A DNA stretch of 6,185 nt from Escherichia coli (lineage in GTDB: Bacteria; Pseudomonadota; Gammaproteobacteria; Enterobacterales; Enterobacteriaceae), in assembly GCF_003334255.1 (NCBI RefSeq), contig NZ_QOWU01000102.1. One strand, written 5' to 3'. The stretch's first letter is position 1; the number at the start of each line of letters is the position of its first letter. The notes beneath the pieces were generated by a model that saw only the letters and a list, made by a program, of their open reading frames with translations, was not told the origin of the DNA and did no database searches. The position numbers and the translations under genes were made by a program. This document shows, in pieces, positions 3,843 to 3,971 of the stretch.

Positions 3843-3872
3843 AACCCCGTCATCGTACGGGGTTTTTTGTTT
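3843..3872 (+). terminator. Rho-independent terminator downstream of the portal gene
   Basis: GC-rich hairpin with stem CCCCGT (3845-3850) pairing ACGGGG (3857-3862) and a 6-nt loop CATCGT. The stem can extend by two A-T pairs (3843-3844 with 3863-3864). It is followed by TTTTTTGTTT (3863-3872) and begins 19 nt after the portal stop. Confidence 0.7.
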
Positions 3873-3971
3873 CCGGAGATAAGCGTTCCGGGAGCGGTGC
3901 GCTTATTCGCGGGGGCAGCGATAAGCCTTATTTACTCAACCATTCGGATCTGTCCGATAAACAGACCATGC

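Follow-up and report, generated by a model that had tools for sequence, protein, structure and literature searches.

The scaffolding gene of phage P22 regulates its own expression post-transcriptionally, according to work cited in PMC5529062 (Casjens & Adams 1985; Wyckoff & Casjens 1985). A gene with a comparable setting is found in the stretch of Escherichia coli DNA considered here (6,185 nucleotides of contig NZ_QOWU01000102.1, RefSeq assembly GCF_003334255.1; hereafter the window, meaning the whole stretch analysed), which is the head-morphogenesis module of a short-tailed Shiga toxin (Stx) prophage of the 933W/Sp5 type (Sepvirinae). The gene, a homolog of L0115 of 933W and of ORF61 (ECs1222) of Sp5, lies between the portal and coat genes, as the scaffolding gene does in P22, and comparison across related prophages shows that positions 3871–3981 on the + strand, directly before its start codon, encode a conserved 5′ leader RNA with a predicted structure. 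To our knowledge, no cis element has been defined for the P22 scaffolding gene, whereas here an RNA element has been defined from sequence alone. The product leaves the virion in P22 and was not detected on it in Sp5; the further parallel, post-transcriptional control tied to assembly, is for this leader a proposal only. Neither the proteins nor the leaders of P22 are related in sequence to those of the window, and the genetics of Sp5 point to ORF65 as the scaffold (PMC5155283).

Other described elements resemble the leader in part. The leaders of T4/T2 gene 32, E. coli rpsO/S15 and the alpha operon/S4 share with it a candidate H-type pseudoknot a few nucleotides (nt) before the Shine-Dalgarno (SD) sequence, strong primary-sequence conservation and specificity for one cistron, but here the pseudoknot is deduced from the invariance of one helix (S1) and the covariation of another (S2), two further conserved hairpins precede it, and there is no Rfam match. 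The RNase III signals of T7 have a counterpart in the ~15–18-bp interrupted helix, with its internal loop, that lies here between cistrons of a long phage transcript, and the stabiliser of the ompA 5′ untranslated region has one in a stable hairpin where a highly expressed mRNA could begin; terminator-type hairpins at cistron ends are a further shared feature. Elements of the T7 and ompA type are, however, defined by shape, show little sequence conservation and recur before several genes, whereas the leader is single-copy and invariant in sequence over ~60 positions. We tentatively favour the view that it is a gene-specific post-transcriptional control element, preferably in the form of a translational operator that would be bound by a conserved partner.

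Relatives of the leader and of the downstream gene were gathered from viral contigs, a set of one genome per species, metagenomes and one E. coli variant, giving ~40 distinct variants from roughly a dozen lineages. They reside in Stx phages of E. coli and Shigella and in prophages of Citrobacter braakii, Yersinia similis, Serratia quinivorans, several Pectobacterium species and two Brenneria species; nearly all of the copies added by the metagenome scan were of the E. coli type. The layout is constant in all variants, running from the portal gene through one or two unrelated terminators (hairpin plus U-run) and the element to the start codon of the L0115 homolog, with genes inserted between portal and terminators in a few lineages. 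The last ~105 nt before the start codon can be aligned throughout; the rest of the spacer cannot, and the spacer as a whole measures anywhere between 153 and 855 nt. In an alignment of ~1.9 kb spanning the end of the portal gene, the spacer and the beginning of the downstream gene, the longest invariant runs, GCTTATTCGC (10 nt) and TCGGATCT (8 nt), both belong to the leader. Such runs reach at most 7 nt within 600 nt of portal coding sequence, and none of at least 6 nt occurs in 600 nt of the downstream gene. Some 60 of the 107 leader positions are invariant or nearly so, stems included. The downstream protein, by comparison, has 39–53% identity between groups, versus 68–86% for the large terminase (TerL), the portal and the major capsid protein. 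The leader appears, from these comparisons, to be under purifying selection.

The fold was obtained with RNAalifold and explicit pair counts on an alignment (A3) of 32 distinct sequences. Canonical pairing is seen in 95.2% of 890 pair cells, against 24–51% when the 3′ partners are slid by 1–3 columns, and the covariation score of 0.241 (shuffle mean 0.151) was reached in none of 500 column shuffles. Double changes occur at seven pairs, a count taken from related sequences with no tree-aware null. Compensatory changes are found in the helices designated P0, P1 and S2, and P0, P1 and P2 make up the single-sequence minimum free energy (MFE) structure of nearly all variants. The 5′ strand of P0 (3871–3875) pairs with 3910–3914 in the MFE structure of the window (A3 columns 3–6 with 39–42); its column pair 3:42 takes four forms (A-U 11, G-U 10, C-G 7, G-C 4), and 4:41 is U-A or C-G. 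A 3x3 internal loop, whose 3′ side (a near-invariant UUC) falls with the P0 3′ strand in 3908–3914 (columns 36–42), leads to hairpin P1 (3878–3907), which has 12 bp, a GGAG loop at 3891–3894 and a 1x1 mismatch of U3887 and U3898. The base of P1, UAAGC/GCUUA, is conserved, and its upper stem covaries (columns 17:28, 19:26 and 20:25), with tops as different as CUCUU-AUCC-AAGAG, CUUUG-GCAA-CAGAG and UUUAG-CAA-UAGAG retaining their pairing. An independent E. coli variant (L295, from strain E7-1N7, NZ_CP134805.1) has replaced an otherwise invariant G-C of the P1 base by A-U, with both sides changed. In hairpin P2 (3913–3928), GGGC (3913–3916) pairs with GCCU (3925–3928) around a conserved 8-nt loop, AGCGAUAA; 99% of its cells are paired, and the changes are one-sided only (G-U to G-C or A-U). 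One divergent variant, L262, keeps the P2 stem with a replaced loop, and another, L263, largely keeps that stem, with one mismatch. A pyrimidine-rich linker, variable in length and sequence, follows at 3929–3943 (columns 59–73).

The pair counts in the same alignment define a pseudoknot-compatible module at 3944–3965. Its first helix, S1, pairs UCGG (3944–3947) with CCGA (3954–3957) and is 98% paired and nearly invariant. The second, S2, pairs UCUGU (3949–3953) with ACAGA (3961–3965) and is 91% paired; its middle column pair (82:93) takes the forms A-U (23 sequences), G-C (7) and U-A (1). By itself S2 is worth only +1.2 to −3.4 kcal/mol, versus −4 to −6 for S1; a helix that is weak yet covaries is to be expected if it is stacked on S1 in a pseudoknot or stabilised by a ligand. 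The two helices overlap by one nucleotide, and the order of their strands is that of an H-type pseudoknot with putative loops of 1–2 nt (L1), 0 nt (L2) and an A-rich 3 nt (L3, 3958–3960). It is plausible that S1 and S2 form a compact pseudoknot of this type, although they could instead be mutually exclusive alternative hairpins. The module ends 6 nt before the SD sequence, GGAG at 3972–3975, which itself lies 6 nt before the ATG at 3982 and is kept as (C)AGGAG or GGGG in all variants. Two further pairings were considered and set aside. That of GCAUG in the P0 3′ strand with CAUGC before the SD sequence is perfect in one lineage only and does not covary, and masking of the SD sequence by the pyrimidine linker is unsupported, as it has no fixed register.

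Whether the active form is RNA or DNA can be judged from the helices themselves, in which G-U cells outnumber A-C cells by 93 to 9. Because of this imbalance, the comparison points to RNA of the + strand, that is, to an mRNA leader. With a covariance model (R1), 44 loci score 69–120 bits in the sense orientation, compared with 13–23 bits on the antisense strand; in the window it matches 3871–3985 on the + strand (98.1 bits, E 1.5e-24), and it finds no second copy elsewhere in the window or in the 61.7-kb 933W genome. Seven chance matches to a DNA pattern (L174, L175, L176, L181, L185, L269 and L285) were rejected by R1. A site acting at the level of DNA is scarcely tenable, whether it is conceived as a promoter, as a packaging (pac) site or as a late-regulator operator composed of the direct repeats. 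Short direct and inverted repeats are indeed present in the window, and high nucleotide conservation would also suit DNA bound by a protein, but the direct repeats are not conserved between lineages, indels of variable length separate the conserved blocks, and neither compensatory changes nor the wobble imbalance would have any meaning for duplex DNA. The same imbalance disfavours the binding site for a late regulator that an earlier note on this DNA had entertained. As for a promoter, a scan of 3500–4300 for sigma-70-like sites (−35/−10, 16–18 nt spacing) returned none on either strand.

The lack of a sigma-70 promoter in that interval, together with the lack of a terminator after the element, argues for a leader rather than a separate small-RNA (sRNA) gene. 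The Hfq-dependent and anti-sRNA genes of enterohaemorrhagic E. coli (EHEC) prophages, such as AsxR, AgvB and StxS, are likewise non-coding RNA features of Stx prophages, but they are separate transcripts that end in terminators, whereas the leader has no promoter of its own and runs into coding sequence. P1 (3878–3907) fails as an intrinsic terminator, being followed by CGCGGGGG and not by U residues. A search of 3700–4100 against Rfam 15 with permissive filters gave best scores of 13–20 bits against gathering scores of 37–76, with no match on the sense strand of the leader, and five divergent variants likewise had no match to the element. The only sRNA-like match, a weak one to the Hfq-binding isrJ (3809–3866, +), scored 19.5 bits (E 0.27), well short of its gathering score of 37; it extends over the end of the portal gene and the upstream terminator but not over the leader, and is probably a mere resemblance to a terminator. 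A covarying sense-strand fold that adjoins the ribosome-binding site of a single gene is what defines a structured cis-regulatory 5′ leader RNA in generic terms, and as predicted here the element is of this kind; it is apparently an undescribed motif.

Three other candidates were rejected. A leader peptide could be read from a 41-residue frame with a TTG start (3867–3992), but it has no PHROG match and the indels between lineages are not multiples of three. A sigma-54 or sigma-70 promoter in GGGCAGCGATACGCC has a spacing one off the −24/−12 consensus (by eye), its motif is replaced in L262 and L263, and the scan was empty. For an antiterminator RNA of the put type, the gap from the terminator to P0 is too short to hold a promoter.

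The earlier note had drawn attention to this region as a repeat-rich leader of ~110 nt between the terminator and the start codon, and the extent is right: the leader measures 111 nt from the end of the terminator U-run. The repeats themselves fared unevenly. The direct-repeat copies are present as described (TTCCGGAG at 3871–3878 and TTCCGGGAG at 3886–3894), as are the two copies of GATAAGC (3878–3884 and 3920–3926). CGATAA occurs at 3955–3960, where it had been placed, and also at 3919–3924. The inverted repeat of ATAAGCG (3879–3885) and CGCTTAT (3900–3906) is real, but the 7-bp stem and 14-nt loop ascribed to it are too short a version. Its full arms are 3879–3890 and 3895–3906, and when folded it forms 12 pairs (3878–3890 with 3895–3907) with one 1x1 mismatch and a GGAG tetraloop. 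The palindrome CGGA-TCTG-TCCG exists one position further on than had been given, at 3945–3956 rather than 3944–3955.

As a bare list, the short repeats are close to chance. Among 2000 dinucleotide shuffles of the leader, an exact 7-nt direct repeat arose in 20% and a perfect 7-bp inverted repeat in 8%, and only the number of repeated 6-mers was unusual (1% of shuffles). The fold of the whole leader has z = −1.7, P0 plus P1 has −3.5 and the P1 hairpin −4.8. What lifts the leader above chance is, on the alignments, comparative conservation and covariation and not the repeats. The view that there is no function at all, the repeats being accidental and the conservation a product of close kinship between prophages, would draw on these near-chance statistics and on the 94–100% identity of the whole region within E. 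coli Stx phages, which is for that reason uninformative on conservation; even there, the polymorphisms fall at the bulged U3887, in junctions and in the linker, or else keep the pairing (U3872C, U-G to C-G). Since the core is near-invariant and the helices covary in lineages whose flanking spacer cannot be aligned and whose protein is ~40% identical, we regard this view as next to untenable. The chance reading and the DNA-site reading are both contradicted by the data.

Which of the repeats matter is settled by the relatives. As an operator the direct repeats did not survive, for in the alignment neither TTCCGG(G)AG nor the exact duplication of GATAAGC is kept outside the lineage of the window. 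TTCCGGAG is the 5′ strand of P0 and TTCCGGGAG the upper 5′ strand of P1 with its loop; both regions covary freely and have unrelated sequences in other lineages, so that the TTCCGG(G)AG repeat appears to be a lineage-specific coincidence. The GATAAGC and CGATAA copies occupy three contexts, the base of P1, the loop of P2 (which contains the second GATAAGC) and the junction of S1 with loop 3 (where L3 lies within the CGATAA of 3955–3960). Elsewhere these sites read CGCUAAGC, CGAUACGC and CCGGUAA or CCGACAA, respectively, each being conserved individually while the repeat relation between them is not. The inverted repeat and the palindrome, by contrast, are conserved as structural pieces, the first as the base of P1 and the second as S1. 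The suggestion of a structured leader RNA adjoining the ribosome-binding site is thus borne out by RNA folding and by covariation across homologous phages, and the functional reading that went with it is plausible in kind.

We favour an operator because the element is gene-specific, because ~60 of 107 positions are invariant or nearly so, because a pseudoknot-type module stands 6 nt from the SD sequence and because that sequence is left unmasked. The neighbouring head cistrons are bracketed by plain hairpins with U-runs and have no such leader. The large share of invariant positions, stems included, argues for sequence-specific recognition, and with no conserved pairing to mask the SD sequence, regulation would need a trans-acting factor. 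In the proposed mechanism, a conserved partner would recognise an invariant surface made up of the P1 base, the internal loop, P2 and the pseudoknot, beside the ribosome-binding site. Its binding would fix or limit the rate at which translation starts on this single cistron within the long Q-antiterminated late transcript, so that the supply of the protein would be matched to the needs of head assembly. Candidates for the partner are a host factor and head proteins such as the capsid protein or the unassembled ECs1222-family product. The stable P0–P1 hairpin, coming just after the upstream terminator, would insulate the leader fold from upstream RNA and could also protect a processed 5′ end. 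That the leader takes part in binding, repression or processing we infer from these patterns of sequence and pairing.

Several observations weigh against this proposal. An RNase site or an intrinsic tertiary fold could equally account for the high sequence conservation. Consistent masking of the SD sequence was not found in the predicted ensembles, its unpaired probability ranging from 0.02 to 0.86 across variants. S1 and most of P2 rest on invariance or on one-sided changes only; the covariation of S2 amounts to about two independent events and that of S1 to none, while P0 and P1 have a good number. The aligned sequences are related by descent, and the covariation statistics carry no tree-aware correction. 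In L071 the 5′ strand of S1 is deleted and an S2-like hairpin kept, and in L263 S1 is degenerate; the gene is intact in both, so the pseudoknot may be dispensable, or these prophages may be decaying. The contrast between a fast-evolving protein and a near-invariant RNA core somewhat weakens the case for autoregulation by the ECs1222-family protein. Finally, no description of this spacer or RNA was found in the literature searched.

The identity of the partner turns in part on what the downstream gene encodes. In Sp5, ORF61 (ECs1222) is essential for heads to form: its deletion abolishes packaging, no head-like particles being detected, and an anti-ORF61 antibody left virions unlabelled; its role was left open and ORF65 was proposed as the scaffold (Mondal et al. 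2016, PMC5155283). This was the only paper on ECs1221 or ECs1222 found in the literature searched. Pfam, NCBIfam, PDB sequence and Foldseek searches with the L0115 homolog gave no usable family or fold match, and none to a scaffold family. The AlphaFold2 model consists of long helices and an acidic disordered segment, with a predicted template modelling score (pTM) of 0.27. The label "scaffold gene" in the earlier note is a supposition drawn from gene position. The position between portal and capsid genes, the helical and disordered model, fast evolution and absence from virions (PMC5155283) are scaffold-like traits; against such a role stand the missing family match and the assignment of the scaffold to ORF65 in the same paper. 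The family is the fastest-evolving of the head proteins, at the 39–53% identity given above, and shows invariant blocks (an N-terminal TG-x-ET-x-E-x-L-E, KDGxH-IPY-VL-A-R and DPxW...ERF-EV-KRT-AAYGE) with an acidic, low-complexity, predicted-disordered segment between blocks (residues ~22–73). Neither co-variation between RNA and protein nor an excess of private substitutions is apparent in the divergent L262/L263 lineage. The gene's own protein is a somewhat less likely ligand, since it evolves much faster than the RNA core and shows no co-variation with it in that lineage.

A partner conserved across Enterobacterales would be needed if the RNA core stays invariant while phage proteins diverge; one candidate reading is a platform for a host regulator, for instance CsrA bridging two GGA motifs, one in UCGGAUC (3945–3950) and one in the SD sequence (3972–3975), ~27 nt apart. 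Known CsrA targets have a GGA motif overlapping the SD sequence, as is the case for one of the motifs here, and both motifs are present in nearly all variants, including L085 (CGGAGC) and L055 (GGGGAA). However, a GGA within an SD sequence is trivial, the upstream motif is inside helix S1 and not in a hairpin loop, L071 does not have it, and CsrA binding would leave the conservation of P1, the internal loop and P2 unexplained; we think such a platform very improbable.

The P0–P1 helix also lends itself to a different reading, in which the leader is a module for mRNA processing and segmental stability. The late polycistronic transcript would be cut either by RNase E, in the single-stranded U-rich stretch that separates P0 from the terminator hairpin, or by RNase III, within the helix of P0, internal loop and P1. 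The upstream RNA would then end in the terminator hairpin as a protective structure, the downstream mRNA would start with a protective hairpin, and the abundant head proteins would be expressed more strongly and for longer. P0, the 3x3 loop and P1 form an interrupted helix of 15–18 bp (4–6 bp, then the loop, then 12 bp; z = −3.5 to −4.8), a shape that partly resembles an RNase III site, and in most lineages it starts 3–5 nt after the terminator U-run. The L0115–L0116 pair is bracketed by strong hairpins with U-runs in 933W, as is the L0115 homolog alone in L058 and L116, and an accessible SD sequence is more in keeping with a stabiliser or enhancer than with a repressor. What matters in 5′ stabiliser hairpins and RNase III sites, however, is shape and not sequence, so that the ~60 invariant or near-invariant positions and the presence of P2 and S1/S2 are left unexplained. 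The capsid gene, which needs higher expression, has no such leader where a terminator separates it, R1 finds no second copy, and in the L058 and L262 lineages the terminator lies 20–50 nt from P0. A processing module thus seems a serious but rather doubtful alternative, and one that could coexist with the operator.

An RNA acting independently of protein, by riboswitch-like ligand sensing or by self-processing, would explain the invariant nucleotides as a tertiary core. Variable stems (P0 and the top of P1) combined with invariant junctions and loops and an SD-proximal pseudoknot are the conservation pattern of riboswitches and small ribozymes, and the class would be a new one, as no Rfam family matches. 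It is nevertheless an improbable reading. An all-against-all column scan for extra tertiary pairs gave lineage-coincident signals only, hence no tertiary covariation beyond the helices described; no conserved alternative pairing masks the SD sequence or makes a terminator; the distribution is narrow, being confined to one phage module of Enterobacterales; and a metabolic logic is not evident for a late head gene. The boldest possibility is a new class of phage regulatory RNA, either a pseudoknot operator that senses unassembled head protein (its own product or the capsid protein) and tunes translation of the ECs1222-family gene or a ligand-sensing or self-processing fold. We consider this unlikely, but with a sensing operator, if real, a cis element coupling the expression of a head-morphogenesis gene to assembly would have been defined for the first time.

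Late expression in Stx phages is commonly portrayed as the output of a single Q-antiterminated transcript. Against that background, the leader offers a concrete, mutable handle on how proteins needed in ~12 copies and in hundreds of copies are balanced from one late transcript, and a specific place to examine the idea, long held for P22, that post-transcriptional control is coupled to assembly. The known cis-regulatory RNAs of phages gain a well-supported candidate family with this leader, and it is present in stx1- and stx2-carrying prophages of EHEC O157 and O104. Should it only stabilise or insulate mRNA, it would be an ordinary though tidy example.

Within the wider locus, positions 3700–4100 are identical (100%) to Escherichia phage PhiR12_3 and 94–98% identical to 933W, VT2-Sakai and ~190 other Stx-phage records, and the stretch is present in 422 of 5426 complete E. 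coli genomes. The module opens with TerL (19–1680), whose stop overlaps the portal start in an ATGA at 1680 (1677–1683), which suggests translational coupling. The portal gene (1680–3824 in the open reading frame (ORF) list, +; phrog_156 portal protein, E 1.4e-252) is a homolog of 933W L0114 and Sp5 ORF60 and is annotated as portal in 933W and other records. Unlike the overlapping TerL/portal junction, the portal and the next gene are separated by a structured gap of 157 nt. An intrinsic-terminator-like hairpin and U-run found by a terminator scan (3841–3870, +; stem 3841–3866, −13.7 kcal/mol, z = −3.0) forms the 5′ boundary of the leader, and relatives have one or two such sites at the equivalent place, unrelated to it in sequence. 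The L0115/ECs1222 homolog (3982–4989, +; 335 residues) belongs to phrog_479, "unknown function". It is followed after 22 nt by the major capsid gene of the N4 gp56 family (5012–6185, +, running off the end of the window; TIGR04387 capsid_maj_N4, E 8.6e-24), a homolog of 933W L0116 and Sp5 ORF62.

Head cistrons of the late operon are individually bracketed by hairpins with U-runs, which occur after the portal gene, after the capsid gene and after L0117. Strong examples in 933W (L294) lie at 2531–2554, 4934–4951 and 5374–5392, and in distant relatives they are found right after the L0115 homolog (L058, 4111–4124; L116, 6713–6731). Inside an antiterminated late transcript their role may be to stabilise 3′ ends or, in the prophage state, to provide insulation.

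The junction between portal and leader has a history of its own. In L295 (2501–2750), megablast similarity begins at the terminator (window 3838 onward; query position 139), and none is seen over the portal 3′ end. The junction of portal and terminator thus has the look of a mosaic recombination boundary, in which case leader and head gene travel together. The prophage L071 (1237–2812; IMGVR_UViG_2657244976_000004; also L108 and L259) has a cargo insertion after the portal region and upstream of the leader, with a 302-residue ORF that contains a colicin pore-forming domain (PF01024, 3.6e-19) and, beside it, a reverse-strand membrane ORF of 215 residues that is likely to be the immunity protein. 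This colicin-bearing prophage is the sole leader variant with the deletion in the S1 5′ strand. A reverse-strand, membrane-like ORF of 109 residues occupies the 553-nt portal-to-leader spacer of Pectobacterium fontis (L116, 5085–5540; also L184). Together, L071 and L116 suggest that the junction is an insertion hot spot, and the insertions are always upstream of the terminator and the element.

The E. coli-type leader (97 bits with R1) was also met on tiny contigs of low coverage, one of 477 nt in Terrisporobacter mayombei with a coverage of 0.7 (L172) and one of 1716 nt in Xanthomonas pisi (L182); both are almost certainly Stx-type prophage DNA of E. coli contaminating unrelated assemblies. 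On the − strand of the window, a 129-residue ORF (3976–4365) runs antisense across the beginning of the head gene. The record of Stx2 converting phage I (AP004402) lists it as a gene, ORF-2c, which looks like an over-annotation.

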